54,878 nucleotides of DNA from a virus (IMGVR_UViG_3300030099_002160:1-54878), one strand, 5' to 3'; positions 3,634 through 42,724 are shown, counted from the first letter of the stretch. Translations and numbers: made by a program. Notes: generated by a model from the letters alone, not told the origin.

Positions 3634-4226
3634 AAAAAAAATATAACAAAAAGATAAGGAATGCCACAGCCACTACCTTCAACGGAATTAAATTTAAATC
3701 AAAGCTAGAGAAGTTCACTTACCAGTGTCTAAAAGTGGCTGGCATACCCTTTAACTACGAGAAAGATAGGTTTATACTGATAGATAAGTTTACCTACAAA
3801 GGAGAATCTATAGAGAAGAAAAAGAGTAAAGGCAAGAATGTATTTGTCAAAGCCTCCAAGAATATATCTCAAGCTACATACCTGCCTGACTTTACCAATC
3901 TTGATCAAGGTTGGATCATAGAATGTAAGGGTCTTAGAACAGAGGCGTTCAATCTCAGATGGAAATTATTTAAAAGTAGTCTTGCAAAACAGAAAAAAAA
4001 TTACGATCTTTACATGCCTGGCACTCAAAAACAAATAATGGAAGTTATTAATTCTATAAAAGAAAAAACAATGATTTCAAATGAGGACAAGGAGAAACTA
4101 AACAAAAAGATAAGAAGAGATTCTCAGTTGGAGGCAGAACAAAACGGAATGGATCTTAGATCTAAACCGTATAAGAATAAAAAAAAATACACAAGAAAAA
4201 ACAAACATGCTAAAGACAGTTTTTAA
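3630..4226 (+). CDS. T7 endonuclease I-like PD-(D/E)xK nuclease / resolvase with basic C-terminal extension
   Basis: FKSKLE, YLPDF and IIECKG motifs. Confidence 0.8.
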   Translation: MKKKYNKKIRNATATTFNGIKFKSKLEKFTYQCLKVAGIPFNYEKDRFILIDKFTYKGESIEKKKSKGKNVFVKASKNISQATYLPDFTNLDQGWIIECKGLRTEAFNLRWKLFKSSLAKQKKNYDLYMPGTQKQIMEVINSIKEKTMISNEDKEKLNKKIRRDSQLEAEQNGMDLRSKPYKNKKKYTRKNKHAKDSF

Positions 4227-4617
4227 ATCATTACTTGGTGACGCTTCAAAGATCATAGACGATGTGGTTACGACCAAAGAAGAAAAGATGTCACTTAAGT
4301 TACAAATGAAAGAGATGATTGAGAATGCGAAAGCAAATGCTCAAGAACAAGTAACAAGAAGATGGGAGGCTGACTCTAAAGCTGGATGGTTGCCAGCTAA
4401 TATAAGACCTATGATACTAGCTTTTTTAACGATCATGCTGGTGGTTATGTCATTCTTTGACGGTAACGTAGGAGACTTTAAAATGAATCCAATGTACGGT
4501 CCAATATATACTCAGCTCCTACTTGTCGTATACTCAGCGTATTTCGCTGGTAGATCAATCGAGAAAATAAAAAATAATAACAATAAAAATAAATTAAATG
4601 GAAACGAAAAAAATTGA
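4207..4617 (+). CDS. holin (GTA/3TM holin-like)
   Basis: IDDVVTTKEEK, RWEAD...WLPANIRP, two hydrophobic segments, YFAGRSIEK. Confidence 0.8.
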   Translation: MLKTVFKSLLGDASKIIDDVVTTKEEKMSLKLQMKEMIENAKANAQEQVTRRWEADSKAGWLPANIRPMILAFLTIMLVVMSFFDGNVGDFKMNPMYGPIYTQLLLVVYSAYFAGRSIEKIKNNNNKNKLNGNEKN

Positions 4618-4873: not shown

Positions 4874-4877
4874 TGAT

Positions 4878-4900
4878 AAACCCACCGCATGGGTGGGCTT
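4878..4900. terminator. hairpin between convergent gene blocks, probable terminator
   Basis: CCCACC-gcatg-GGTGGG stem flanked by AAA and CTT. Confidence 0.55.
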
Positions 4901-4999
4901 ACCGAAACCAAAAAACTTAAATTATGAACTATGAAAGTTCACATGATTTACTAATATACAAAAATATATTTAAATCCTAAAAAATTATACTGTAATTTA

Positions 5000-5470
5000 T
5001 TAACAACTATGATCGTAATAACTTATGGTAACATCCTCTCCATTCTTTATAGCCTGTGCTATCTTGGGATATATACGCATGTAGGCTCTTGTTGATGATC
5101 CTACAAAACCGTTCTTCTTGATTTGATTGTTCTCCTGTGAGTCCCCAACAAGTAAACACCCAGCGGTGTCTTCATCAGTATTACCACAGTGAATAAGAAT
5201 ATACTCAAAACCAGGGACATCAAGAACATGAAGCATGCCGATATGAATATCAGCGAAACGACCAGAATATTTTTTATGGTATCCACCAACCGTTCTGAGA
5301 CCCAACTTGTAAGTCCCTTCAGGTATTCTTGTCTCGCCATATACTTTTGAATCTCTTTGTTCATCTTCTAAAGTGTAGCACAAAAAGTTTCTCTTACCGT
5401 CTTCTACAGAAAACAAAAGACCATTAGTAGAATCAGGCTCACTAGAGAACCTTATTACCTCAAGTTTCAT
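5000..5470 (-). CDS. DUF5675-like protein (L,D-transpeptidase-like fold), candidate endolysin
   Basis: STNGLL, CYTLED, IPEGTY, ILIHCGNTDEDTAGCLLVG (His...Cys pattern). Confidence 0.75.
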   Translation of the reverse strand: MKLEVIRFSSEPDSTNGLLFSVEDGKRNFLCYTLEDEQRDSKVYGETRIPEGTYKLGLRTVGGYHKKYSGRFADIHIGMLHVLDVPGFEYILIHCGNTDEDTAGCLLVGDSQENNQIKKNGFVGSSTRAYMRIYPKIAQAIKNGEDVTISYYDHSC

Positions 5471-5884
5471 TTACGCAGATATGAATAACATGTACTCTAC
5501 AGTCAAGCTTGTTGCTACGCTTGGTGTATACACAATGTCATTATTGTCATCGTGAGCACTCCAAGGCATAAACATCCAATCTCCAGCGTATAATCTACCT
5601 ATTTCTTCTCCATTTATTTTAATAGTAACAAACTCTGATCTAGTTGTAGAACAGTTTTTAATATATAGTTTGTGAGCTTTGTTAGCACCGTAAGTTGTAG
5701 CTGGAGTCGCATCAAACAAGTTAACATCAGCAGTTGCTGTAGTTGTCTTTCTAGACAATCCCTCTAACTGAGTAATACCTGTAGTTGTGCCAGCATCAAA
5801 CAAAGTAGCTGTAGCTGTTAAGCTAAGAGCATCTGATGTTAAATCACTAGAAGATAGTGTAATTTGTGCAGTTGTTGTTGCCAT
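5471..5884 (-). CDS. hypothetical protein, probably virion structural (Thr/Ala-rich beta protein)
   Basis: composition; own TATATTTG promoter upstream. Confidence 0.6.
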   Translation of the reverse strand: MATTTAQITLSSSDLTSDALSLTATATLFDAGTTTGITQLEGLSRKTTTATADVNLFDATPATTYGANKAHKLYIKNCSTTRSEFVTIKINGEEIGRLYAGDWMFMPWSAHDDNNDIVYTPSVATSLTVEYMLFISA

Positions 5885-5915: not shown

Positions 5916-5923
5916 CAAATATA
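5916..5923 (-). promoter_or_regulatory. Bacteroidota primary-sigma -7 element
   Basis: TATATTTG (TAnnTTTG) about 30 nt upstream of ATG 5884. Confidence 0.65.
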
Positions 5924-5929
5924 ATCATT

Positions 5930-6103
5930 TTATATCTCAAAACCAAAGTTGAATATCATAAATCTAAATTTTGAGCAATTAGTTTTTTCGCATATATAGC
6001 AAGGACAATATTTTATTTCTAATAAAGTTATAGTTCCAAGTCTTAGCGATATACCATACTTTTCTTTTTTATTTCCTGCGTTCCAAGAATTAATCCAATT
6101 CAT
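5930..6103 (-). CDS. 57-aa protein missing from the ORF track
   Basis: MNWINSWNAGNKKEKYGISLRLGTITLLEIKYCPCYICEKTNCSKFRFMIFNFGFEI; fills the gap, A-rich start context, four Cys. Confidence 0.7.
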   Translation of the reverse strand: MNWINSWNAGNKKEKYGISLRLGTITLLEIKYCPCYICEKTNCSKFRFMIFNFGFEI

Positions 6104-6114
6104 ATTTTTTATTT

Positions 6115-6507
6115 TTAATTAAACTTTGCTAGCATTATTTGATCAATGCTTTTCTGTATTTTCTTTTTATCTGCCTCCAGCTGAAACATTATGTTAGCTG
6201 AAAACCTTTCTTTTTCTTTGCCACTTTCAAATATGATGATCGTAGGCACACTTAGCACATCATAGTCGTTCTGCAAGCTAGTGCAGTGCATTATATCTAC
6301 TCTGTAAACAGTAGCGTCTTTTAAAGATCCTAACTCGCTAAACTCATTACTTTTGTTCCAGTCAGCCCAGAACTCTACAGCTACTATATCTTTGGCTATT
6401 TTTTCATTAAAATTATTTACGTTCAAAAAGTCTTGAGACTTTGATTTACCTGCTAATATTAAAAAAAATATAAATAATAATAATAATTTTAAATCTATAT
6501 ATTTCAT
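6115..6507 (-). CDS. exported thioredoxin-fold protein lacking CxxC
   Basis: signal peptide; VAVEFWADWN replaces vdFwAxWCxxC; YRVDI, YDVLSVPTIIIF cis-Pro loop. Confidence 0.75.
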   Translation of the reverse strand: MKYIDLKLLLLFIFFLILAGKSKSQDFLNVNNFNEKIAKDIVAVEFWADWNKSNEFSELGSLKDATVYRVDIMHCTSLQNDYDVLSVPTIIIFESGKEKERFSANIMFQLEADKKKIQKSIDQIMLAKFN

Positions 6508-6508
6508 G

Positions 6509-6790
6509 CTACTCTAATTTATCTATCTTATCTCTAAGATACTTAATATCTTCTTTTATTTCAGTAACATCCTCCTGGGTCGTAAGTATAGTTTGACGGA
6601 TCATACGATCCTTCATATCAAACTCCATCTTAGTAACCTCTGGCTTTGGTGGTTCTGGAAGCTCTTTAGCTTCCTGTATGTCAGCCTGTAGGGTAAACCA
6701 CATTCCTACGAATGCAAATATTAAAACTGATATACCTCCTAAGGTTTTTAGACTCACTTCAAATTTAGAGTCCTCCGATAATTCTTTCAT
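6509..6790 (-). CDS. single-pass membrane protein with coiled coil
   Basis: TM LGGISVLIFAFVGMWFTL; C-terminal heptads. Confidence 0.75.
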   Translation of the reverse strand: MKELSEDSKFEVSLKTLGGISVLIFAFVGMWFTLQADIQEAKELPEPPKPEVTKMEFDMKDRMIRQTILTTQEDVTEIKEDIKYLRDKIDKLE

Positions 6791-6792
6791 AA

Positions 6793-7074
6793 TTAACTTT
6801 TTTTATTAACTCTGCATTTCCATTTTCTTAGTGCCAACGCTTTTCTTGTTGGTCTTCCTTTTTTATCTTTTAGTGGACCTTTCATTCCACTCATTCTAGC
6901 ACAAAAAGACTTACGTCTCTTAGCTGCTTTACTACCCTTTTTAACCTTACCAGTAACAGGGGCACCCAGTTTACTTCCAGGATTAGCTCTTCTATAAGAA
7001 GCTCTACCCTTTTTGTTTAAACCGCCAGTGGGACTCTTGCCCTCTTTTCTCTGCCATGCTGGTGTCTTTGCCAT
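6793..7074 (-). CDS. small basic protein (DUF6321-like)
   Basis: AWQRKEGKSPTGGLN...RRKSFCARMSG...LRKWKC pattern. Confidence 0.75.
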   Translation of the reverse strand: MAKTPAWQRKEGKSPTGGLNKKGRASYRRANPGSKLGAPVTGKVKKGSKAAKRRKSFCARMSGMKGPLKDKKGRPTRKALALRKWKCRVNKKS

Positions 7075-7376
7075 TACTTTTTCTTTTTGTTTACCTTAAC
7101 CCCCCTTTGTCTTCTAAGAGCTTCTTTAGCCCTTTTAAATATAGAAGCCTGCTTAGGCTTGCCACCATACTTAGATCTTTGCTCACCTACAGTTAATATC
7201 TGTATCTTTCTAGCGTAAGGTTTATTTATTCTTTTTACCTTGGCTACAGTGGCTCTAGCATCAGACTCAGTAGCGTACTTTATACTAACTGTATCTTTAG
7301 GATTCTCATCCGTATATAATCTTCTACCTGAGCCCTTTGGCTTTTTACCTGTTCCTACAACTGGATCTTTAGCCAT
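7074..7376 (-). CDS. small basic conserved phage protein
   Basis: GTGKKPKGSGRRLYTDENPKDTV motif; TAATG coupling. Confidence 0.75.
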   Translation of the reverse strand: MAKDPVVGTGKKPKGSGRRLYTDENPKDTVSIKYATESDARATVAKVKRINKPYARKIQILTVGEQRSKYGGKPKQASIFKRAKEALRRQRGVKVNKKKK

Positions 7377-7645
7377 TACTTCTTCTTTTTTCTTTTGTTA
7401 ATTCTAGTCCCTTTCTTTCTCTTATATCTACTAACTCTACCCTTAACATTTTTTTCTTTCTGTGCTCTTCTTCTCTCAGACTTACTTAACTCACTCCAAG
7501 TTGCTGGAGTATCTTTACTAACTCTTTTTGTAGGTCTAAAAGTATTTTCTCCGCCACTGTAATCCTTCTTACCCTTAGGTGTTCTCCAATCTTCCTTAAA
7601 CCATCTTTTGAGTCTAAGCCCCGCTTTTGTTTTACGGACAGCCAT
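7376..7645 (-). CDS. small basic protein (DUF5872-like)
   Basis: LKRWFKEDW...RPTKRVSKDTPATWSEL. Confidence 0.7.
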   Translation of the reverse strand: MAVRKTKAGLRLKRWFKEDWRTPKGKKDYSGGENTFRPTKRVSKDTPATWSELSKSERRRAQKEKNVKGRVSRYKRKKGTRINKRKKKK

Positions 7646-7848
7646 TATCTTCTCTTTTTCTTTTTCTTTTTACCTCCTTCGCCCCAGTTTCTTACACCAA
7701 CTTTTCTACACTTAGCCATGGCTCCACTTCTATACGCAGAAGTTTTAGGTCCATATCTACGAACCACCTTATAGTAACAAGCATCTTTCTTAGATGTTTT
7801 GCCACCTTTCTTATATTTTTTTACAACTCTTTTATTTACTCGGGTCAT
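7645..7848 (-). CDS. small basic protein
   Basis: KKDACYYKV...SAYRSGAMAKCRK; TAATG coupling. Confidence 0.7.
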   Translation of the reverse strand: MTRVNKRVVKKYKKGGKTSKKDACYYKVVRRYGPKTSAYRSGAMAKCRKVGVRNWGEGGKKKKKKRR

Positions 7849-8087
7849 TAGTTTCCAACTTGTTTTTTAGCTGCATTATGAGCTTGAGTAAAAGTCTTTC
7901 CCTGCTTCATAAGCTTAATCATAAGATTCATATGTTTTTTAGTATGATGTTTGCTATGTTTTTTCAGAGTGTCCTTTTGTCTATCAGTTAGACCGTCTGT
8001 TCTTTTAACTAATTTAACTTTAGATCCAGTTCTAGACATTGCTGGTCTTCCGACCTTATTACCGTAAGTTCCTTTTCCGCTTGGCAT
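7848..8087 (-). CDS. small basic His-rich protein
   Basis: MPSGKGTYG.KVGRP and LKKHSKHHTKKHM...FTQAH. Confidence 0.7.
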   Translation of the reverse strand: MPSGKGTYGNKVGRPAMSRTGSKVKLVKRTDGLTDRQKDTLKKHSKHHTKKHMNLMIKLMKQGKTFTQAHNAAKKQVGN

Positions 8088-8091
8088 ATTT

Positions 8092-8304
8092 TTATTTTTT
8101 AGAGAATTTTTCTACGCCACTTATTCCGAAGCATCCTAAGACAACCCAAACAAAAGAGTCGTATACAAATTCATTTATTACTAGATCTTTACCAATCCAG
8201 CCTGTTACCAGATCAGCGACCATTATTATACACATTATTATAAAAGCTACAAAACCAACTATAGCCTTCTCATTCCAATCATTATTGTCTTTAAATATAT
8301 TCAT
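8092..8304 (-). CDS. small two-TM membrane protein
   Basis: two hydrophobic segments, ends GCFGISGVEKF. Confidence 0.75.
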   Translation of the reverse strand: MNIFKDNNDWNEKAIVGFVAFIIMCIIMVADLVTGWIGKDLVINEFVYDSFVWVVLGCFGISGVEKFSKK

Positions 8305-8906
8305 TACATTCCACCTCTCATTGGGTCATACATACTGATATCAGGTGCCCCTCTCTTATCCGTTTCATTAACTTTTTTTATAAAATCTTCAAACTCTTCA
8401 CGATATTCTTGTGCGAATTTTTCTAAGAGATCGATGTTTTTTTGTCTTTCCTCTGCATTTTTGTCTCTAGTTTCAACTGTTTCTGCTACTCTACCTGGTA
8501 TTTCCGCTGTTCCTGTCCTTTCTCTTTCTGGCATTTCCGCCCCCTCCTGAGGAATTGTTTTCTTTTTTAATGGCACTCCCCCTTCTTGCATAATTATAAG
8601 AGCATCCATAGTATCATCTTCACGCATTTTAAACTTAGGCATCTTAGATCCCATCTCCATGAATCCAGTTCTCTTCATCATTTCTCCACCCTCTTCCATG
8701 CTATACATTTTGTTTTTACCTCCTTTACCATATTTCATCTTCATTCCTTTTTCAGCTTTTCTAAGCATAGCTAGATCTTGAGCATCGATGTCTCCATCAT
8801 TATCTTTATCCATTTCCCTAGATTGAGCTTTTGATAATCCACCCACTCTATAAGTCATTCTGGGCTTGTTCATTCCTCCGCCCATATATTTTTTTCTCAT
8901 TTTCAT
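8304..8906 (-). CDS. Met/Lys/Gly-rich protein with an EF-hand-like loop, probable internal virion protein
   Basis: DKDNDGDIDAQD loop; many xxxG[GMSA] motifs. Confidence 0.65.
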   Translation of the reverse strand: MKMRKKYMGGGMNKPRMTYRVGGLSKAQSREMDKDNDGDIDAQDLAMLRKAEKGMKMKYGKGGKNKMYSMEEGGEMMKRTGFMEMGSKMPKFKMREDDTMDALIIMQEGGVPLKKKTIPQEGAEMPERERTGTAEIPGRVAETVETRDKNAEERQKNIDLLEKFAQEYREEFEDFIKKVNETDKRGAPDISMYDPMRGGM

Positions 8907-9583
8907 TTTGTTAAGTATTTAATTTTACCATTTTCTATATATATGTCTTCAGGCTTTCTTATGACCTGACCTTGTAAATTATATAGTAATCCAGATTTTT
9001 TTGACTCATCTAATATTTCTTCAATACTAGATCCGCAGGGCATTCCTGTTTCACAGTCTACATATTCTGTGCTTACTACTTCAACGTATTCTATTTCAGT
9101 TACTGTGTCTGTCACTATCACATCTACGTATTCAATTACATCAATATACAAAGTATCTAAAACATCTGCGTAAACAGTATCTGTTACATATATATATTGT
9201 GTCTCAACAACAGTTTCGTACTCTATAACAGTCTCATATTCTACTATAGTGTCATACTCTGTTATGTACTCAGTAATATACTCTATTACTGGTATGTCTA
9301 TAAAAACTGTATCACATCCTATCGGTATAGGAGGTAAACAATCTGTAGGTAAAGTTGGACCTTCTGTGTTTTCATCAGCAGCATCTACACAATCTTCCCA
9401 GCTATCATTTATCCAATCAGCTTGAACGCAACCATTTGGAGAATACTGAGTCCAGTTTGATGGATCATCTCCACAGTAAAACCCTCCTTGCTGTGCACAC
9501 TCTAAACACAAAGCTTGAAAATCAAATTGCTGAGAATAACTTAGTGATCCTATAAACGCAAATAAAAATATCAACCTATTCAT
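8903..9583 (-). CDS. exported protein with LDLa-like Cys motif, TEY/DTV repeats and T9SS-CTD-like tail
   Basis: signal peptide ...SYS|QQ; CVQADWINDSWEDCVDAADE; C-terminal LYNLQGQ...IYIENGKIK. Confidence 0.7.
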   Translation of the reverse strand: MNRLIFLFAFIGSLSYSQQFDFQALCLECAQQGGFYCGDDPSNWTQYSPNGCVQADWINDSWEDCVDAADENTEGPTLPTDCLPPIPIGCDTVFIDIPVIEYITEYITEYDTIVEYETVIEYETVVETQYIYVTDTVYADVLDTLYIDVIEYVDVIVTDTVTEIEYVEVVSTEYVDCETGMPCGSSIEEILDESKKSGLLYNLQGQVIRKPEDIYIENGKIKYLTK

Positions 9584-9586
9584 AAC

Positions 9587-10660
9587 CTAAAATATTAAAT
9601 AATTAAAACCAAACTTTACTTCATATACTGGCTTCATCCAGTATCTCATGTGCGTTCCTTCCACAAACATACCTAAGTGTTTAGTTATTCTTGATCCAAG
9701 CACTATGCCAGCATCCCATTCTATATTATCCCATTCTTCGACTCCGTACTCAAAAGAGTATTCGTCAAGACCAAAGTGAAAAGGCATGCAGTTAGCCCAT
9801 AAGTGTATCCACATCTTATCCGTATATTTATAATACGCTAAACCTAACACAGCACTTAACTCTTTTTGTAGTCCAAGTTTGTCCAACTCCTTTTCGTTAT
9901 ATCTAGCAACAGCATCTCCGAAGTAGTGGTTGAAGAACTCATCATTTGAGGTAGCGACTAAAATAGAGTCCCCACCACTAACATCGTACCAATTTTGGTT
10001 CACGTAAAAACCTTGAACCCATTGTTCTGGAGCGTACCCAAAGTCTTGAGCCAACTGTTGAAAAGTGGACTCGCCAGGCACCCAGAAGTCTTCTATGGGG
10101 GTAACACCATAGACAGGATGAATACGAAAAACTCCTCCGATTGTAAAATCCCAGTTTCCTTTGTTTATTCTAATTCTATTATCAAGCGATGCGTATCTTA
10201 AGTTAACTCTCTGATTATCAGTAAACTGAGCCTTAGACACAAACTTGTCACCTAAATACCTTAACCATAATTTTTGATCTACAAACTTCTCGCCCCTACT
10301 TCTTATAAAAGAAAAGTTAAGCAAGTATTCCCATCCCACAGCATTACCAAGTGTAACATTGTCTGCTACAGCCTTTTCTGTTCCGTAATACCAAGTCTTC
10401 ACTTTGTACTCATAATCAAACCTAGCTATCTTTCTAAGACCTACAGTTAAGTTATAATCGTAAGGATGTACAATGGTAACATCTTCATAACCTTTAGACA
10501 CAGCGATATAGTCACCTCTTTCGCTAAAAGGTGTGTTCATTGTCATAGATGTATAAAAGGTAGAGTATTTAAAGAAGTTTCCTTGACCAAAGACGGTTGA
10601 AATGCCGAACACTAAAACCATCATTAGAATATATAGTATGTTAGTTACATCTTTTTTCAT
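9587..10660 (-). CDS. probable outer-membrane beta-barrel protein (start reassigned to MKKD at 10660)
   Basis: signal peptide ...VFG|Q; amphipathic aromatic-rich strands; C-terminal VYEVKFGFNYLIF beta-signal ending in Phe. Confidence 0.7.
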   Translation of the reverse strand: MKKDVTNILYILMMVLVFGISTVFGQGNFFKYSTFYTSMTMNTPFSERGDYIAVSKGYEDVTIVHPYDYNLTVGLRKIARFDYEYKVKTWYYGTEKAVADNVTLGNAVGWEYLLNFSFIRSRGEKFVDQKLWLRYLGDKFVSKAQFTDNQRVNLRYASLDNRIRINKGNWDFTIGGVFRIHPVYGVTPIEDFWVPGESTFQQLAQDFGYAPEQWVQGFYVNQNWYDVSGGDSILVATSNDEFFNHYFGDAVARYNEKELDKLGLQKELSAVLGLAYYKYTDKMWIHLWANCMPFHFGLDEYSFEYGVEEWDNIEWDAGIVLGSRITKHLGMFVEGTHMRYWMKPVYEVKFGFNYLIF

Positions 10661-10664
10661 TACA

Positions 10665-10672
10665 CAAATATA
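10665..10672 (-). promoter_or_regulatory. Bacteroidota -7 promoter element
   Basis: TATATTTG 4 nt upstream of ATG 10660. Confidence 0.6.
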
Positions 10673-10683
10673 ATTAAAAATCA

Positions 10684-13600
10684 TTAATCTAGAGGTATAT
10701 TAACATCTTTTATCAGATCTTCAAAGAAAAATCCAGTAGCTAGTGGAAGCTTTTTAATAGAGTCTAATTTTTTCTCTTGACCATCTGGCATTCTTAAAAC
10801 ATCTTTATACTCTCTAAAAACTTTTCTAGCATTTTTATAATATCTATTATACTCCTCGTCTTTAGTAATCTCAATACCCATACTATCAAAAGCTCTACCT
10901 ATTGCAACATTAATTTCCCCTGGTTTGTCAGAAGTTTCCTGTAGCAAGACTCTAGTTATAGCTGATCTATTTTTATCGCCATCTCTATATTGTCTAACTA
11001 ATTCGACTATAGTTGGATCTCCTATAGAAGCATAAGTTATATTATTATGATAACCTGTGAGCCACCTCTTCCAATCATTTTTGTCAAAAACATGTGTTTC
11101 TATAAATCCAGGTTCCTTGCTTAACTCTTTTACTGACTTCTTTACAGCTTCAACAACCATCACATTATCTAATGTTTGCATTATTTCAGGTAGGGTTTTA
11201 TCTCTATATTCTTCCCTAAGCTCACCATTGTCATCTAATGGTAATGTGAAAATATTACCCTCTTTATCTACGTAAGTTTTGTTTTGGCTATCGTATGTTA
11301 CACCCATATCTTTAGCAACTTGTCTAAAATATTGATCAAACACATAATTCACGTTTGCATTTTCATTAACTAAAGTCTTAGTATTTTCAACTAATGGATC
11401 TACATCTCTCTCTGTTAGATCAACCTTACCTATAAATCTATCTTTAGCTGGTCCAAAGAAGTCTTCAGTAAATTCAATAAAAGCTTTGTCTGTTTCTATC
11501 TTGTCCGCATCAGGTCTAAGTACATTGCCGCCTACAGTATATACATTATTAAATGTTTGATACCAAGGATTTCTATCAAGATTAGTAAATACAGATCCCA
11601 GTCCCTCTTTTAAGTTTTGAGTGTTAGCAAGGGGATCAACAACATTTCTAACCATTCTACCGTCACCAAGAAAATCACTAGCATAGTCAAATGTTGTTGC
11701 TAAAGCTTTTATCAACTGATCCTCTTCTGAGCTTAAATTTCTCATTCTTAAAGGACCTATCACATTTGGATCCCCCCTCCAAACTTGTTCTTCTCTCCAA
11801 AGATCATAGTTTTTGTATATTTTATAAAAGGCTGATATACCTGGATTCGAAGCTAAGACACCCTCGGTTGGAATAGGCATAGACTTTTTAAACATGTCTA
11901 AATAATCCTTTCTGGTATTTGCAGATGGTCTTCCAGTTATGTTTTGATAAGCCAAGTCCTGAGCAGGAAGTTTAATAAAATCTAATGAAAGATCAGTAGG
12001 CAGTTTTAAATAAGAAGGATTAGTCACTGTATTTTGTCTCCTTTCCTTTTCTAAAGCTCTGATTCTCTCAGACAACTCAATAGTGGGATTTTCAAGATAT
12101 TCTAACCTCATATTTTCAATAGCAATTTTGAGATTTTGTTCTTTTTCAGGATCTAAATAATCATGCCCCGACCAAGGAAGCATAACAACAGTGTGATTTT
12201 TCTTATCATACTCACTAACTTTGTCATAAAGATATTCAGTGTTTTCTTTGTCTTGCCTTAGTAAATCTTCTTCTTGCTCTCTTAACTTTATCAAATCATT
12301 TATTATCTCAGCGTCTGTTGTGTTTCCTGAAGTTATAGCTTTGTCATACATTTTTTCAAGCTTCTTAACACTTCTAATATTATTAAATTTATTTTGATTT
12401 TGATCCATGAAGTTTTTATCCAACTCCTTATCTATTCTTTCTTTTTCGTCTTCATCACGATATAGTCTAAACGCTGCTGATAAAGAGAATGCTGTTGCTG
12501 CATAAAATATAAATTGAGACTGTGCAAGATCCCAAAAGAACTGAGCTTTATTTTTCTTAGCGTACTTTAAACGAGAATACATAACTTGAAGACCTGCGTT
12601 TAGATAAGCAAAACCTGCTTTTTTATCAAGAGACTTTATTTCATTACCACCCCCATTAAAGTTAGCGTAATCAACAGCATTTCCTACAGCCAACCTTACA
12701 ATTTCTTTGTACTCTTCTTCATTAGGATCTCTACCATTTTCTTTTTTAAACTTCTTTATATAGGTGGATTTCCATCTTTGCGTATTAGCTAACCTACCCA
12801 TTAACTCACTCCATTGATTTAAAGAACCGAAATATTCCATTGTTTTTCTAAGAGCATTAACTTTATTTGGATCTGAAAATGGCTGATCGTCAGGGTCTAA
12901 AACTATTTGACCGCTCAAAGATGCTTGATTAGCAGCCTCTACAGCTTGATTATACGTTAATCCCTGTTCTTTTTGTAATTTATCTATATACTGCTCTAAA
13001 GGATCTTTGTAGGCTTTTACGTTTCCATTTTCTGAGTTTATACCTTGAGTGTTAAAAAAATCAAGATTACCTCCACCAAGCATATATTCATCAACCAAAG
13101 GTGTGGGAACATCCGTCCCCTTAGCTAGCCTACCTCTGACATTTAAAACATGAGAAAAAGCTTCACTAGAAACACTCGCCCAATCAACAACAGCATTAAA
13201 ATATTTTAGAGGTAAAAATAATCTGTTCCAAAAATTGTAATTATAACTGTCACTAAACTGAACTTGTTGAGTCATATCTAATCTAGCATTATTCAAGAAA
13301 AAGAATATTCCTAAATTTCCAGTAGCAAAAGTTTTTAAGTAATTAGCCAGCGTAGCATTAAATCTAAGAGCAGCACCCACTCCTGGAACTGTTAATAGAC
13401 TGTCAATATTTTGACTCAAACCAGGTCTGTTAAATAAGGATTGATACGCCTCTTCTGTCAACGCCATTTTTTTAACATCTCCATTTATACGAACAGGGAC
13501 TAAGTAGTATTGATTTGTAGCACCATTTATACTATTAGTATACTCAGGAACATAAGGTCTATCTTTAGTAACTGTGTATCCAACAACTTCACTAACAGGT

Positions 13601-16600
13601 ATAGGATTGTTTTCGTATTCTCCAAAGATACGTCTAGCTAAACCAAACCTCTTAGGATTTGTTTCTGATTGAGCCTTTTCAATTATACTTATAGTATTGT
13701 ATATACTATTTATAGCTTCATTAGTGGCTAGAATACTAAATGTAGATCCTATATTACCTTCTAATAGTTTTACTGGATCTGTAAACAATACTTCATCACT
13801 ACCAAGACCTATCTCTTTTAGTGGGTTAGCTACGTTGTGCACTTTAACGGTGCCAGGCATTTTTATATTTATAACATTGTCTTCCGATATAACAGAGTGA
13901 TGTATAAATCTTCTTGGAATATAATCTAGATCTTTTAGATTTGCGTAAGTAATATTGTCTATCAACCCTCCTTCCCACTTTCTCTTTAACAAATCTTTAT
14001 GTACTGAAAATACTTCATCGGCTTTTTTATTCAAAAATTCAAAGTCGGGCTTTGTTTTTTTACTGTCTAGTATAGCCTGTGCGGTTTCTTTAGATAATAC
14101 TTCACCCGTTCTTGGCTGTCCGTCTAAACTTAGCTTAGGATGAAGAAGTCTCCAAGGATTTATATTTAAATCACCCTCTATGTTTTTCATTTCTAATCCA
14201 GGGGGTACTTCTACCTCCATAAATCCATCTTTGACATACTCACCATTTTCTACTAATACTAATTTATATTCTGAAGGTCTGAATCCAAAATCTGATTTTT
14301 CAAAAACTAAATCCATCTTTACTCTTTTGTCTTTGATCTTTCCATCTTCTCCCTTTTCTGAGAATGGATATAAATTTTTAGCTTGTGTTACCAAAATTCT
14401 TATATCTCTTTCTGTTTGTCTGATCTGCCTAGTAATATCTTTACTTTCTTCAGTAGGAGGACCCATAATTCCTTTTGCCTCGTCCCTAGAATCTTTTAAA
14501 GTATTTATATCTTCATATTTTTGATTTATCTCTTTTATCACCTCATCTAAAACCAACTTTCTTCTATCAAACTCATCATCCAAAACTATAACTCTTCTAA
14601 GTAACATTATTGTACCCAGCTCTCTAATTTGATCGTTAGACATCTTGTAAAATATAGGATTAGAAAACTTATCAGCATAATGTCTAGCAGTTCCAGGAGA
14701 GTTGTTCCACCTTATTAATGACATTAGGTTGTCCATAGCTTGAGGCTCTAAGTCATATTTTCTAGCTGCTAATTCTAAGCTTTTTCTAATAAAATATCTA
14801 GAGTCAACCGACCCCTCCATAAGTTTAGATCTTAAACTTCCCACTTGACCAGCTTTGAATTTCGCAACTGCTTGTTGAGCCTGACTCAAAAAGTACGTAA
14901 AGATAGCGTTAGTAGATTTGTTTCTATAGCTGTTATCAATATTAGATTCTAATACTTTATCAAGTTTGTTTACTTCTTCGCTTGTATAACCATCTGGTTT
15001 TGAGGAGTTTATAGAAGGCACAGATTGTTGATCTAACAAAGTTTCTTTTTCATCAAGTTCTTTTTGCTCCTCTTCTGTTAGTGCAGATTCTTCCGTAACT
15101 TCAACATCACCTATGGACGTTTTTGGATTTTGTTCGTGAAGATGGTAGTCATCAAATATTTCATTCTTAAAAAATTCTTTTATAGAAAACTCTAGTTCAG
15201 AAGTGTGCTGTCCTGTGTCTTTTAAATATTTTATAGCCCTATCTATAGCATGACCAACATTAGCTGTTGTTCTAAGACTGATAGAAGCTAACTTAATAGC
15301 TGTCATAAAAGCCTGTCTAAATCCAAAGTCTGAATAAAGATGACCTTCTTTAAGCATGCTATTGTACAGTGCATCTAGTTTTTCTGCTAGTGTAATTAGC
15401 TTCTGAAATCTCGGAACGCTTCTAGCATCTTCTCCATGTCTTTTTCTGACATCCGAGATGTCTTCGGCTGCGAAACCAAGATCAAGCGTTGATTGTCTTC
15501 TGGTAAGTTCGGATCTGAGATCTGTGTCGAAGGATTTGTCTTTTTCTTTAATTGTTTTATATTCTCCATTTGTAAATACTTTAGTGTTAACGTAATTTTT
15601 TTCGAAATAATTAATTTTTATATTGTTGTTTTCAAGTTTTTCTCTAACAGATTCTGCATCTTGATCAAACTTATTTTGTGAGTTTATCCAGTTTTCTTCT
15701 CCTATAATATCATCTATATTATTGAAAGACTTAGTATTCATAGCATACTCTGGTACAAGCTGAAACTCTACTCCTACTATCTGCTTTTGCTGATTATAGT
15801 TAAATGAATATCCAGATATATCAGAAGTATTTAAAGCGTTTACTAAGAACTCTTTATCAGTGTCAGTTAGGGGTGAGTCAAACTCTATTCTTCTATACGG
15901 TCTTGCGTTGGGATGATCTTGACTTGTTGTCCTAGAAACAAACACAGATGTCTGACCGTTGTAGTAACCTATGTCCATAGCTTGATTTACAATAACAGAT
16001 ATATCGGCACCCTTAGGTATAACAGCTTCTGTAGTAATGTTTGGTTCAGCTTGATTATTATATACCCCTTCAGTAATCTCTACTCTTGACATCAAAGGAT
16101 TTAAAGATCTTATAGCTTCTTCCATGTTCTTTTTAGCTTGATCAAATCTAACAGACCCCTTCAAAGTTTGCATAGATATTTGTATAAGCTCTTCATCCGT
16201 AGCTCCTCTTTCTATGGCTGGATACAATTTATTATACACATTAGCCATGTGCATCTCTTTATCTTGACCTATAAAAGCACTAGCTCCAACAGAAAGTCTT
16301 TCTACTGTGCCATTAGCTTTTATCTTAGAGTCCATAGTAGTAAGTTTCTCTATGTTTCTAAAACCCATAGTGTCCCACAGAGTCTGTTCATACTGCCATA
16401 TTATAGCTTGAACGTCTTCTATCTCTATATTATCAACTCCAAACAGTGAACTCAGGTCTCTGGTAGAAGTAAGATCTCTAAGAACATCTTGCATAAATTT
16501 AAAGTCTGGATCAGAAACCCCACGCTCTTGTGGTTGTCTACGTCTCCAGTATACTGGACCTGTAGGTTGTGAACCAGTTTGTTTATAGGCTGAGTCATAC

Positions 16601-19600
16601 AATGCCCTTCTACCAAATCTACCCATCCAAACATCTATAGTCGCATTGTGATCTCTTTGAGATAAGTTGTTGTAAAATTGAGCTGTCTTTAGAGCAGGCT
16701 TGCTTAACATCTCTGGAGTCCCTGTTTTGTCAGCAAACTCAAATCCTATCCAGTTACCGTATAGAACTCTTATGATGGCTCCGTTAACAGCTCCAAAAGA
16801 AGTTGGTCTACCATTAGATCCTAAAACATTTCTAGCCTTTTCTATTTCTTCTACTATTCTAGCATCATTAGAAGCACTTATCATTTTATTTTGAGCATTT
16901 ATCAGAGTCATACCACCCAGTTCATACTCTTTCAGAATGTAGTTTACGCTTTCATCATATATCTCAAGAGCTTTGTTTAGCTTGCCCTGTGAGTATAATC
17001 TTAGAGCTTCATCAGTTTTTTGTACGTTAACTTCTGGTGTCACCTGTGCAGAGCTAGCTCCAAGTAGTTCAAAATACATATTAGCAAAAGGACCAAACTT
17101 TTCTTGAACAATCTCTCTAGTATTTCTATACCATCCAACAGAATCATTCATAAAGTCATTTAAGTTCATACCAGATTGACTAACTACAGCGGGTAAATTT
17201 TGTAACTCACTAAATATAACATTAGAAGTAAATTTAACCTTTTGTTGATATTGCTGTTCTGAAGTTAATGTTCTATCTATATTTTGATTAAATATAGGTG
17301 CATCTAGTAATTCAAAACCAAAGTCTTTAAAAGCAACTTTACCACCCTTGGTAAATTTAGGGTATCCAGCTTGATTTAATACTATTTCCTCTGGCTGTAG
17401 CTGCTTGTCTGGATTATTTTCGTTATATGTATTAGAGTCTTCTACTTTCTTTAATGCTGATTGATACTTCTTTAACCTAGATCCTGAATACATATTTTCA
17501 TAAGTCTTAGGATTCTTAGATCTTTTTATCATTTTATGCAACTCAGTAACATCTTCAACTCTAAACTGCTTAGGATATTTTTTCTCCATAGCACTTATAA
17601 ACTTCTTTTTGTTACCTTTTACTAGCTCGTATTCTTTTACTGACTTATTGTATATATTACTTTGACCCCATAGGAAATAATTTTTAAGATCTGTTTTACT
17701 TATCCTTGATCCATCAGGCATCTTAAGTTTGCTTACAGCATCATTTACAGCTTTGGAAAAACCTTTACCTAATTTAAGACCAGATCTTATAGATCTAAGC
17801 AAAGCCTCAGCTAAAGCAATCCAGTTGTCTTTGGTGCCTAGCCCCATTAATATATCTGACTTGATAGTATTGTCTCTGTTTCTAGCTAGCCATTCTAATC
17901 TTTCATCTATCCATTTTAGCATAGAATCAATAGCTTCAGTAGAGTTATTAGGCTCAAAAGGATCCTTGATTGAAGATTGATTAGCGGATCTAGCAGAACC
18001 CAACAAGTCCATGAGTTTACCCGCTTCAGTAGACGAGAAAGACTTTCTACCAAGAGCTTCAGCAAAAGAAGTAAATGTTGTAGTGTTTTTGTCCAGCAAA
18101 GACACAAGGTTTTGATATGCTTCGTTTTTGGTTCTACCCATAGTTATACCTGTCCTTGTTTCTACAAAAGCAGGCTCTCCAGGTTTTTTTGTCAACTCTA
18201 TGTTTAGATTGTTTATAATACCTTTATATGTCTTGGTTCTGTAATCGTAAGAAAACATTTTATTGACAGTTTTAGGCATACCTTTTATGTCACGCATCCA
18301 GTCCTGGACAGGTGTAAAAGTTTTCAATAGGTCAACAGGGTCAGAAACATTTAATCCTCCATCTTCTACTTCTAGAGCCATAACCTCAGATATATTATAT
18401 ATAGTAGGCTCTTTTACTAAGGCGTTTACTATTACGCTTTGTTGTTCTGTTAAGGAAACTTCTATAGGCTTGCCTTCTAGCGAGTTAGCTGCTGCCTCTA
18501 ATACTATAGTGCTTTCTACATCTGGATACCTTGACTTTACCTTTTCAGTTATATTTCTAAATATATTTGTAGGCAAATCATTATTATAGAATAAATCATA
18601 GTTTGTTTTTATGTTAAGATCTTGGTAGAACTTATCTAAAGCATCAGCATAGTTTCTAGAGTCTGTTTTGTCTGGAAACAAATCTTTCTTTTCTTTCCTG
18701 TTATATTCTGCTTCTTCTTCTACATCTGAGTCAAACCTATCTTTTAGCTCGTCTAGCTGATCTTTAGTAAAATTAAAAGTGTTATTAACAAAGTTATTAA
18801 CAGAATCCCAGTCTCCTGATTTTACTCCTGCGTAGTACACCTTATACAAGTCCTCAGTGTTTGCCATTCTAAGATACAACTCATCTTTACTGTATTGATC
18901 TATAGATTCTTTTACAGGTCTACTAAGTGATTCTTTGATTAATTTATCAGCGGCATTTATATCTTTCTTTTCTTGTTCGTTAGCTTCTAACGCTGTCAGT
19001 CCATAGTCTGTTCCATCCTTGTCTGTTCTAATCATCATGGTATTCTGAAACTTTTCATCAATTTGTTTTTCAAGATCCAGATCATCATCTATTCTCAAGT
19101 TTATAGAACCGTTTTTTATTTTCTGTATAAAGGTAGGATCGTTAATCAAACTCTCCATAGCTCTTTTAGTAACATCTTTACCATTTACACTATATCTACC
19201 AGAAGGTGCGTTTAATAATTTTAAAGCATCTGGAGTCCCTTCTTTTGCTGTTTGATAGTCACTGTCAAGTAATGCCTTTACCTCTTCTCCAAAAGCTGAG
19301 TTTTTATACTGTTCAACAGACTCTAAGTATTTTGTTATAGCAGTGTAGTCTACGTCAGATAAATCTATGTTACCATCGTTATAGTCCTGTATCATCTGTT
19401 CTAGCTGTGCGTCTATACCTCTAGCTGTTGCAAGAGTAAACGCAGATGACATACCATAACACATAATAGCAGTGGTAATTAATTTATTTATTTTTTCATC
19501 TTTAGTTTCACCTATAGTTTTTGCAAAAGCCTTTTTGTAGTCAAAACCCATTTTGTCTAGGTTGTCTGTAAACTCACCAGCATATTCAGCAAATAGTTCA

Positions 19601-40670: not shown

Positions 40671-42695
40671 TTATATTCTCTTAGATATTATTCCTGTATT
40701 ATTATATTTTTTTACAAAGTTAAGATTTATTTTTCTAACTTTCTTTTGTCTAACGTGTTTTTGTGAAGCTAACAGAGCTAAACTAGAAGCAACAGTAGCA
40801 TCATACTTTGTTCTATTGTCTGGCTCAAACCTGCTCCAGTCATTTAGTAGTCTGTTAAAATAACATTTACCCATCTCTCCAGTATCCTCGTTGTAACCTA
40901 TATGATCATAAACATAGCTAGCCACAGCCTCTGTCTGAGCATTTAAGACAGCTACACCAGTAGATGGTATACCTTTTGTTTTTTGAGATCTACTATTACT
41001 AGTGTGAGTAGACTCTGGTCGATCCATCAAGTATTCATAGTATCCTCTTCTTTCAAAATACTTTATTATACCGACCTTGTTATTTTCTATAAGTATTGGA
41101 CATCCATAGTATACACAAGTTTTTATCACATCCTCGTAAAACATCTCAGCCTTAGGAGGTCTAGCTATGTATTCACAAACAAACTGATTTGAGAAGTCAT
41201 CCATCATGCTAAACTTTTTGTAAACATAACAAGCAGCATCAGATCTTCTACCGTCAGTAGTAGTGTCGTGATCATAAGGGTCACAACCAGCCACCATCTC
41301 CATACTATTAGCAGGAGCTTTTCTGTTTCCAACTTCTTTTATTTTGTTTCTCCTATCTTCTGGCGGCAACCAAGATATTCTCCACCTGCCTTTTGAATTA
41401 GGAACCCACTGAACTTTTCCATCTTGAGTTCCACCCTTCCATATAAAGTCTCCTTTTACCACTAGATTTGTAGCTTGTTCGTTATAATCCATCTGCTGGT
41501 ATATCTTTTCAACATCAAAGGGACTATGTCTAGAATCACTTCTAAAAGCTTCATCTATAGTAAAGGGTCTTTGTCTTTTTTCTTCAGACAATTTAGTAGT
41601 ATTATTTTTATAGGCATCTCTTATGTTTTGTAAATACTCTTTAGATCCAATACTTTTACCTATAAATTTAGACTGTTCTTTTGTTGGTGTATCAATCACA
41701 GAAAATCCGTACTCATCTATGAATCCTTCGTACCCATCATAAGCTGGAGTAAAGTAAGAATACATACCAGATCTAGTTCTTCCGTTAGCATCTCTGTCTT
41801 TTACATCGCTGTCATACCATATATTTTTAAAGTTCTCACCACCTGAAACCTCAAGCTCATTGACAGTGGAAGGCATAAAACATTTCCCTATGATTCTATC
41901 TCCTAGTGTTAAACAAGATCTTACAACTTCCCAGTTTTTTTCTACACTAGCCTCTGTCCACTTACCAGCCTCGTCACATAGATACCTTATTAACTTTACT
42001 GAGTCATAAGAGTTTTCTCTAGTGTTTCTCCAGTCTATTTTACTATTCAAAGCCTCTGACTTTGTAACTTTGGAAAAGTTCTTAGTTATCTTCTGACCTG
42101 GTGTGTTAAAACTAAGTGTGCTTTTAGGATTGTCACTACCATCTATTATAGGCTGAAAAAAGAAAGGCAAACTTCTAAACATATAAACTAATTTGTCTGT
42201 AAACAAAGATTTAGCGTCAGCACCAGTTTTGCTAGTTATGCCTCCATGAGAATTGTATCTTGATGTTATTTCATGTAGCAACATAGCAGCCCCTTTGTAG
42301 GAAGCACCCTCTCTTCTATGCTTTACCATTACCATCCCAAAAGAATTAGGATCTTGCTTGCATATTTCCCAGAATATAAAAAACCTTCTGTCTCTATCTC
42401 TGTACTCAGGATATCCTACGTCCATCTTGCACCAGTTTAAATAATAGTAATGCTCTCCAGTTATGTAGGTAGGCACACCATTATTCATAAACCAGACCCC
42501 TTCTTCTCTTCGTTTAAACTCTTGGTCTATAAACCAAGAATATTTTGAAACAGTTTCTTGACTGAGACCATCTGGCATTTCTGTTCTTTTCCACTTCTGG
42601 TCTTTCTTTTTTAAATCTGAAAACAGTATTTCTTTTTTCTTAGGCTTTACGGGAAGTTTAAACTTCAAACTATTTACTTGTATATACTCCGACAT
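40671..42695 (-). CDS. terL: terminase large subunit (start likely MSEY at 42695)
   Basis: KHRREGAS (Walker A variant), YLCDEAGK (Walker B), MPST, nuclease AGCDPYD, IENNK, KYDATVASSLAL. Confidence 0.92.
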   Translation of the reverse strand: MSEYIQVNSLKFKLPVKPKKKEILFSDLKKKDQKWKRTEMPDGLSQETVSKYSWFIDQEFKRREEGVWFMNNGVPTYITGEHYYYLNWCKMDVGYPEYRDRDRRFFIFWEICKQDPNSFGMVMVKHRREGASYKGAAMLLHEITSRYNSHGGITSKTGADAKSLFTDKLVYMFRSLPFFFQPIIDGSDNPKSTLSFNTPGQKITKNFSKVTKSEALNSKIDWRNTRENSYDSVKLIRYLCDEAGKWTEASVEKNWEVVRSCLTLGDRIIGKCFMPSTVNELEVSGGENFKNIWYDSDVKDRDANGRTRSGMYSYFTPAYDGYEGFIDEYGFSVIDTPTKEQSKFIGKSIGSKEYLQNIRDAYKNNTTKLSEEKRQRPFTIDEAFRSDSRHSPFDVEKIYQQMDYNEQATNLVVKGDFIWKGGTQDGKVQWVPNSKGRWRISWLPPEDRRNKIKEVGNRKAPANSMEMVAGCDPYDHDTTTDGRRSDAACYVYKKFSMMDDFSNQFVCEYIARPPKAEMFYEDVIKTCVYYGCPILIENNKVGIIKYFERRGYYEYLMDRPESTHTSNSRSQKTKGIPSTGVAVLNAQTEAVASYVYDHIGYNEDTGEMGKCYFNRLLNDWSRFEPDNRTKYDATVASSLALLASQKHVRQKKVRKINLNFVKKYNNTGIISKRI

Positions 42696-42716
42696 AATAA
42701 ATTTTAGCCAATTATG

Positions 42717-42724
42717 CAAATATA
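42717..42724 (-). promoter_or_regulatory. Bacteroidota -7 promoter element
   Basis: TATATTTG upstream of terL. Confidence 0.6.

Follow-up and report, generated by a model that had tools for sequence, protein, structure and literature searches.

What use would a marine phage have for an outer-membrane protein of its own, and at which stage of infection would that protein act? The question is raised by a run of genes on the minus strand of IMGVR_UViG_3300030099_002160, a record of a single IMG/VR virus with 54,878 bases and a CheckV completeness of 91%, which is referred to here, at its full length, as the window. A first-pass annotation of positions 5930-10672 had proposed that the phage builds a structure in or on the host envelope by way of two host pathways, the barrel assembly machinery (BAM) and type IX secretion (T9SS). 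An envelope-targeted module with a BAM-type barrel emerges from the present analysis as well; the use of the T9SS does not. The functions suggested there, among them exclusion, masking, adhesion and uptake, are still conceivable. The strongest contextual signal, which had gone unnoticed in that annotation, is the co-location of the run with endolysin and holin genes, both of which lie just beyond 5930-10672. Since a core trio of its proteins usually accompanies an endolysin and a holin across several lineages, the run is read here, tentatively, as a late accessory of the lysis cassette, one that spans the envelope and may act at the periplasm/outer-membrane step. The five open reading frames (ORFs) described at first are all present on the minus strand where they had been placed, and the tight coupling reported for them is real, with every junction from 10660 down to 5930 being an overlap or a gap of at most 11 bases. 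The run also holds six genes without an export signal that had not been mentioned, namely the gene for a 200-aa protein and five small basic genes. The coordinates of all features are collected in Table 1.

The first gene of the run encodes the proposed barrel. Its 357-aa product has a hydrophobic N-terminal leader and an aromatic C-terminal residue, as had been noted, and it models as a transmembrane beta-barrel. The predicted signal peptide consists of a basic N-terminus and a hydrophobic stretch whose position is kept across 31 aligned members, and in the last strand G351 and N353 are nearly invariant, with a terminal F in most members. An AlphaFold2 (AF2) model on the 31-row alignment gave the barrel a predicted local distance difference test (pLDDT) score of 77.4 and a predicted template modelling score of 0.69. 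Foldseek returned 67 PDB matches at E<=0.001, with the top ranks taken by outer-membrane barrels (NanC, FapF, DcaP, OmpG and autotransporters). In VIA comparisons Tsx came first (Z 14.6, root-mean-square deviation 3.6, 184 aligned residues), followed by EstA (13.0), KdgM (12.8) and NanC (12.6), while LpxR (Z 10.5) and OMPLA (Z 10.1) scored lower. In the strands, hydrophobic and polar faces alternate; R76, E111, R134, K143, R162, R179, H181, S269, H286, E334 and N353, the conserved polar residues, are all in lumen-facing register. The protein therefore stands, as a model-based prediction, as an outer-membrane barrel of the 12-stranded type, with a strand number given as 12-14 because residues 79-106 have a pLDDT of about 30; the conserved basic/aromatic segment 74-95 is likewise poorly modelled. 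An outer-membrane lipase of the OMPLA/LpxR/PagL type was considered and rejected, as the register of the conserved Ser, His and Glu faces the lumen and not the outer side.

By sequence, the barrel stands apart. It has no match in Pfam, PHROG or NCBIfam and none among cultured phages by tblastn, and its profile found nothing among the sequences of solved structures (best E 0.17). A word-indexed search found 468 homologues at E<=0.001, forming 212 clusters at 50% identity, and the barrel's Atlas clusters are 100% viral. Close relatives share 61-94% identity, and the gene is present in 9 of the 11 searched records related by the terminase large subunit (TerL), including all six that are at least 90% complete; it is a core gene of this clade. 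A search of genome contigs with a 12-row profile gave 12 matches (L082-L093), all on contigs of metagenome-assembled genomes (MAGs). The labels of these MAGs are discordant (Pelagibacter, Parvibaculum, Nitrosopelagicus, Woesearchaeota, Rickettsiales, Maricaulis, Flavobacteriales and others), and the module copies they bear are likely mis-binned phage DNA. Many homologues also carry Asp/Asn/Gly-rich loops in their insertion (alignment columns ~320-345).

Two smaller proteins complete the trio. The first is a 93-aa protein in which a single hydrophobic segment is followed by a helical tail, in agreement with its earlier description as a one-span coiled-coil protein; its topology and tail were read from the alignment. 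Its Atlas clusters are virus-only (named look-alikes score at most 0.88 and were not used), and tblastn found no match for it among cultured phages. The second, as first described, has a thioredoxin fold behind a leader (Pfam Thioredoxin, E 2.7e-9, with 37.4 bits where the cut-off is 23.5), and 217 sequences of solved thioredoxin-fold structures match its profile at E<=0.01. This thioredoxin-like (Trx-like) protein shares with thioredoxin the fold-level sequence match and the conserved cis-Pro loop, but it is exported and carries NxxN in place of CxxC. F46, N51, N54 and P88 are invariant, and N51 and N54, at the positions of the CxxC cysteines, are kept together with the cis-Pro in 28/28 aligned members. 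Because both active-site cysteines are invariant asparagines, the protein is, judged from its sequence, incapable of thiol-disulfide exchange at this site. A profile scan confirmed at least 471 relatives, of which the best 80 were kept; cultured phages gave only four weak matches of thioredoxin type by tblastn.

A side observation concerns the leaders of these proteins. Eight of 122 distinct barrels (loci L033, L079, L080, L149, L162, L179, L192 and L205) and one Trx-like protein (L083) carry a lipoprotein-type leader in which a strict lipobox is followed by Lys-Lys-Cys-Cys, and it looks as if a leader cassette had been swapped between the barrel and Trx-like genes.

The constancy of the trio was read from two sets of loci, 80 of them anchored on the barrel gene and phylogenetically related, and 79 anchored on the Trx-like gene. 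In the Trx-anchored set, the Trx-like gene has the 93-aa gene immediately upstream in 78 of 79 loci, the single miss having no upstream sequence, and in 62 a barrel gene precedes it on the same strand; 15 loci show no barrel match, and in 12 of these the upstream sequence is shorter than 2.6 kb. Among the barrel-anchored loci, the 93-aa gene is present in 75/80 and the Trx-like gene in 73/80, and both lie downstream of the barrel, on the same strand and within 6 kb, in 67/80. The gene for a 226-aa secreted protein, second in the run, directly follows the barrel in 77/80 of these loci, and the three misses have at most 92 bases 3' of the barrel. The module is thus conserved in other phages. In the distant MAG-borne loci the barrel, the 93-aa gene and the Trx-like gene are kept and the 226-aa gene is not. 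The broadly conserved core, across several phage lineages, is therefore the barrel, the 93-aa protein and the NxxN Trx-like protein.

What usually accompanies this core is a set of lysis genes. In the window these are a candidate endolysin of the DUF5675 family and a holin candidate, the latter on the far side of a terminator-like hairpin. A search of solved structures with the DUF5675 sequence found nothing (E 0.55); passages of a preprint group the family with C82 peptidases by structure. The order of a complete cassette was read gene by gene in four relatives (L066 at 9944-13366, L052, L053 and L047), in which overlapping genes on one strand encode the barrel, the 226-aa protein, in some cases a 70-aa protein, the 93-aa protein, the Trx-like protein, a Peptidase_M15_3 lysin and a holin of PHROG 3427. 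Over all 80 barrel-anchored loci, a lysin candidate comes immediately after the Trx-like gene in 30, with a holin directly next in 27. A lysin candidate on the same strand borders the module in 63 loci: in 51 it lies downstream of the Trx-like gene, at no more than 2.5 kb, and in 12 upstream of the barrel, at no more than 1.5 kb. The lysin lies elsewhere in two of the remaining loci and is missing from 15; nine of these have less than 4 kb of sequence after the barrel, and the other six have the Trx-like gene on the opposite strand. The type of lysin varies at an equal position, with Peptidase_M15_3 in 31 loci, DUF5675 in 26 and the 'endolysin' type of PHROG 33083 in eight, and in L085 it is a PG_binding_1+Amidase_2 protein. 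An unrelated type of phage (L129-131) carries the 93-aa gene, the Trx-like gene, a holin and an M15 lysin, followed by a different, small signal-peptide protein rich in beta-structure. This 130-aa protein has no Pfam or PHROG match and may belong in the outer membrane as a small or oligomeric protein.

The same cassettes could also be divided differently. The 93-aa and Trx-like proteins may control the timing of lysis, as an antiholin, a lysis-inhibition sensor or a holin partner, with the barrel and the 226-aa protein as an accessory unit of their own that happens to lie in the same operon. T4 RI is an example of a small antiholin in the periplasm, and such a role would suit the near-constant pairing of the two genes, their place beside a holin in L129-131, where the 357-aa barrel is lacking, and the six loci of 80 in which the barrel block lies apart from the pair. 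It is quite unlikely, nonetheless, given that the barrel keeps same-strand company with the pair in most loci of both sets, that most Trx-anchored loci without a barrel match have little upstream sequence to hold one, and that the cassette of L129-131 contains another candidate outer-membrane protein.

Table 1. Features in and beside the run, with positions in the window unless a locus is named.
Feature	Position	Strand	Description
357-aa signal-peptide outer-membrane beta-barrel (predicted)	9587..10660	-	~80-residue insertion at 182-264; AF2, Foldseek, VIA
93-aa type-II membrane protein	6509..6790	-	i-spanin-like layout: short N-terminus, one transmembrane segment, Pro-rich linker, helical C-terminal tail
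130-aa exported thioredoxin-fold protein	6115..6507	-	W-N-x-x-N replaces W-C-x-x-C; cis-Pro conserved
DUF5675 candidate endolysin, C82-like peptidase	5000..5470	-	Pfam DUF5675 E 8.9e-28
136-aa holin candidate	4207..4617	+	PHROG 3427 'holin' E 1.2e-21; GTA_holin_3TM E 0.0018, below Pfam cut-off
226-aa secreted protein (predicted)	8903..9583	-	Leader, Cys-rich LDL-receptor-A-like module, variable acidic repeats, C-terminal block
130-aa signal-peptide beta-rich protein	L129:7134-7526, L130:6478-6870, L131:7161-7553		Follows lysin; cassette without 357-aa barrel
200-aa Met/Gly/Lys-rich protein	8304..8906	-	No export signal; EF-hand-like loop below Pfam cut-offs
70-aa protein	8092..8304	-	Two hydrophobic segments, holin-sized; no family match (Pfam, PHROG, NCBIfam)
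Five small, very basic proteins (79, 67, 89, 100, 93 aa)	6793..8087	-	Include DUF5872 and DUF6321
57-aa Cys-containing protein	5930..6103	-	In 35/80 loci
137-aa Thr/Ala-rich protein	5471..5884	-	Second TATATTTG upstream at 5916-5923
3954-aa giant ORF	10684-22548	-	Immediately precedes barrel gene
TATATTTG octamer, promoter-like (-7 type)	10665..10672	-	4 bases upstream of barrel-gene ATG
Hairpin, 12-bp stem, terminator-like on minus strand	4875..4903	.	Between convergent units; ends the run's unit

If the run does belong to lysis, its parts can be fitted into a sequence of events. Late in infection, the barrel would enter the outer membrane, and the 93-aa protein would sit in the inner membrane and span the periplasm towards the outer membrane. 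The Trx-like protein could be a peptide-binding adaptor that links the two. Once the holin had triggered and the lysin had removed the peptidoglycan, the assembly would destabilise or fuse the outer membrane, a step performed elsewhere by spanins or disruptins. The 226-aa protein, with its acidic repeats and calcium-type module, may be a lineage-specific helper that possibly chelates cations at the outer membrane, and the 70-aa protein with two transmembrane segments may be another, possibly a second holin or a holin helper. The five basic proteins and the 200-aa protein would be unrelated passengers on the same transcript. Folds, export signals and gene linkage are what the analysis supports directly; insertion by BAM, contact among the three proteins and the breaching of the membrane are inferred. 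A complex prediction for the barrel (residues 26-357), the 93-aa tail (34-93) and the Trx-like protein (26-130) gave an ipSAE of 0.00 twice, run without controls, and is uninformative either way.

The closest known analogue of this arrangement is the two-component spanin, represented by lambda Rz/Rz1. As in spanins, an inner-membrane protein with an N-terminal transmembrane segment and a helical periplasmic domain has an exported neighbour and lies beside a lysin and a holin, and the module could link both membranes after removal of the peptidoglycan. It differs in that the second gene here encodes a thioredoxin fold instead of a small Pro-rich lipoprotein and that an integral barrel accompanies the 93-aa/Trx-like pair. 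The Pfam, PHROG and NCBIfam scans gave no sequence relation of the pair to spanins. A strict lipobox is present in 2/127 distinct Trx-like proteins, and the idea that the Trx-like protein is, as a general rule, the analogue of a lipoprotein o-spanin was dropped for that reason. The window copy of the 93-aa protein has no periplasmic cysteine. As the pair fails two defining features of spanins, the lipobox and the periplasmic cysteines, it can only be said to be one that may work like a spanin. A strict-lipobox scan of the window returned three rows in two reading frames, neither of them plausible as a small lipoprotein of o-spanin type. It is conceivable, though rather doubtful, that marine Bacteroidota phages without lipoprotein o-spanins have a third kind of outer-membrane-breaching device next to spanins and disruptins, made of a BAM-inserted 12-stranded barrel, an NxxN adaptor and an inner-membrane coiled-coil protein.

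Several points besides the failed spanin features weigh against a role in lysis. All of the evidence for it is gene context, and the phylogenetic relatedness of the loci means that they cannot be counted as independent events. The barrel block and the 93-aa/Trx-like pair are parted in the window by six genes that lack export signals. The six relatives with the Trx-like gene on the opposite strand have it about 8 kb from the barrel, and no lysin candidate was found in them, L028 being the one read gene by gene. The lumen-facing conserved polar residues of the barrel suit a specific channel equally well. No precedent was found in the literature for a barrel acting in outer-membrane disruption. 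Lambda bor and lom are envelope accessory genes that lie near late and lysis genes and do not act in lysis. Lom itself is cited as an exclusion factor in passages of a preprint (bioRxiv 10.64898/2026.10.24.761521).

The example of Lom leads to superinfection exclusion or receptor masking, in which the barrel, alone or together with the 226-aa protein, would alter or block a receptor on the host surface, as Lom is reported to do. The small membrane proteins might then act as a block to entering DNA or to lysozyme, in the way of T4 Imm and Sp, which the 70-aa and 93-aa proteins resemble in size and topology; alternatively, progeny might be kept from sticking to debris. Exclusion genes are usually expressed early, whereas the barrel gene closes the late structural unit and, in many relatives, shares translational coupling with lysin and holin genes. 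It is a well-conserved core gene and not a sporadic moron, and the partners conserved with it across lineages are periplasmic and inner-membrane proteins rather than surface ones. These features make exclusion unlikely as the function of the run, even though the hypervariable repeats of the 226-aa protein are of a kind frequent in surface-exposed proteins and phage-encoded barrels are common, with exclusion as their proposed function. The passages available from the preprint named above count 1,603 barrels in 1,303 huge phages and cite the binding of LamB by Lom. Further porin-like phage proteins are listed in BFVD, one of them a relative with 28% identity.

Phage-encoded barrels are, then, already known. 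Like lambda Lom and the barrels of huge phages, a kind of gene that the same passages and BFVD place in marine phages too, the gene described here encodes a signal-peptide beta-barrel that is presumably inserted by the host BAM. It is of the 12-stranded type, while Lom has eight strands, and it occurs in phages of 55-63 kb and of ~88-90 kb, while the huge phages exceed 200 kb. As far as the preprint's passages allow the comparison, it forms a separate family without a Pfam match, and it is fixed in an operon with a transmembrane coiled-coil protein, an NxxN thioredoxin fold and lysis genes. The literature search turned up no description of a phage lysis cassette that includes a beta-barrel or a thioredoxin fold. 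The lysis-cassette context is accordingly new, though a prior listing of the family is possible.

Turning to the bacterial barrels, Tsx, KdgM/NanC, the autotransporter beta-domains and OMPLA/LpxR are alike at the level of the fold only, with sequence identities of 5-13%, and the phage protein differs from the 12-stranded ones in its ~80-residue insertion and in the conserved segment 74-95. These likenesses nevertheless suggest another use, in which the barrel would be a substrate-specific channel of the Tsx/KdgM/NanC type that raises uptake while the cell is infected, or would export or display the 226-aa protein in the manner of an autotransporter. Specific channels with 12 strands and the beta-domains of autotransporters are indeed its best structural neighbours, the predicted lumen is lined by conserved Arg, Lys, His and Glu, and in the window's clade the 226-aa gene follows the barrel almost without fail. 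Likeness of fold is no proof of function, however, and the barrel has no sequence relation to solved ones. The 226-aa gene is missing from distant barrel-bearing loci, the late position beside lysis genes leaves little time for a benefit from uptake, and the loci examined contain no nutrient-related neighbours. A metabolic or surface function of this kind is thus improbable.

The 226-aa protein is also where the proposed use of the T9SS came to be tested. It was said to carry a T9SS-like tail, and it does share with T9SS type A cargo a signal peptide and a conserved C-terminal block that ends in basic residues. The C-terminal domain (CTD) of such cargo is a beta-sandwich of ~70-100 residues, whereas the conserved block here measures ~45, and Por_Secre_tail matched 0/20 family members at E<=10; the window protein itself has no CTD match in Pfam (E<=0.1) or NCBIfam (E<=1). 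With no CTD model matched in the 20 members, a block of this length and a gene that is absent from distant barrel loci, neither the tail nor the use of the host T9SS is supported. In the alignment of the family, a hypervariable region of acidic, beta-prone repeats, which differs in length among members, stands ahead of the conserved block. Ldl_recept_a is matched by 18 of the 20 members (best E 1.8e-4), the window copy not being among them. AF2 gave a pLDDT of 46.3 overall and 51-72 in the C-terminal block, modelled with low confidence as a helix and two short hairpins; the model is unusable and too poor for a fold search. No match to cultured phages was found by tblastn. Because the gene is absent from the distant barrel-bearing loci L083-L086, it is a lineage-specific addition and not an obligate partner of the barrel. 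As a separate observation, calcium-type motifs occur in three consecutive genes, in the loops of barrel homologues, in the EF-hand/dockerin-like loop of the 200-aa protein and in the LDL-A module of the 226-aa family.

The position of the run within the genome bears on its expression. The genes from the terminase to the giant ORF form a block on the minus strand that includes TerL (40671-42719), the portal, several 'virion structural protein' families and the 3954-aa ORF. A promoter had been proposed at the head of the run, and the octamer TATATTTG is indeed found there; it fits the TAnnTTTG -7 element of Bacteroidota. The exact octamer also occurs 5' of other minus-strand gene starts (5916, 25911, 34031, 42717, 48402 and 48421). 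The degenerate motif TANNTTTG occurs 96 times, compared with 70.6 +/- 8.5 in shuffled sequences, and none of 100 shuffles reached 96. The octamer sometimes stands only 4-5 bases ahead of the ATG, a spacing which suggests very short or absent mRNA leaders at these genes. Because the giant gene ends 24 bases earlier and no terminator-like site was found in this gap before the motif and the run, transcription by read-through from the giant gene is as possible as a start at the putative promoter. The window sequence occurs in marine, seawater and estuary sequencing runs from 12 studies, and three seawater libraries from three studies contain RNA contigs of 117-279 bases. These contigs cover parts of the barrel, 226-aa, 200-aa, Trx-like, 57-aa, 137-aa and DUF5675 genes; they are unstranded and may include carried-over DNA, and are uninformative on transcription units and timing.

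From the same position it could be argued that the products are virion or ejected internal proteins. The genes follow directly on the structural block and its giant ORF, and packaging of the basic proteins is conceivable. Tailed phages put their virions together in the cytoplasm, however, whereas the barrel, 226-aa and Trx-like proteins carry leaders of the cleavable type at a position conserved across their alignments, and a barrel fold requires an outer membrane. A place in the virion is extremely improbable.

The phage itself had been described as crAss-like, which holds only loosely. The nearest cultured matches of its TerL are Flavobacterium 'elemo' podophages (39%) and Cellulophaga phages (best matches 39-42% by tblastn), and complete or near-complete relatives measure 55-63 kb, one of them with direct terminal repeats. 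Four of 138 TerL-matching records bear names that are taken to be those of crAss-like phages. Because its TerL relatives are Flavobacterium and Cellulophaga podophages, the host is probably a marine member of the Flavobacteriia.

The other genes of the run are less constant than the core trio. The 200-aa gene occurs in only 6/80 related loci, and the 70-aa gene, whose product has the two hydrophobic segments first reported for it, stands between the 226-aa and 93-aa genes in 47/80. The five basic proteins are probably outside the envelope function; of the region's DNA, only that of their genes shows a likeness to cultured phages (pelagiphages, Methylophilales phages and cyanophages). Several small basic proteins in L078-L080 share a short C-terminal tail. 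In the rearranged lineage of L028 (3454-7146, minus strand), repeat-rich proteins of 585 and 643 aa replace the 200-aa protein beside the 93-aa/Trx-like pair. Finally, an 87-codon ORF (5101-5364, minus strand) lies in another frame inside the DUF5675 gene and encodes a hydrophobic core and a basic C-terminus, a holin-like shape. It has a tblastn match in 79/83 DUF5675 loci, of which 68 cover at least 80 of the 87 residues and eight carry a stop; a genuine embedded gene could account for this, as could a side effect of conservation in the main frame.

The passage of the outer membrane at lysis by Bacteroidota phages is poorly described, and the module considered here is abundant, as the numbers of barrel homologues and Trx-like relatives attest. 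It offers three defined proteins for testing. Whether the barrel serves lysis or exclusion, the invariant NxxN thioredoxin fold is a protein module that remains unexplained under either reading. If the barrel acts in exclusion, the idea developed for Lom would be extended to virulent marine phages. If it acts in lysis, it would represent both a new mechanism and a new viral use of the host BAM.

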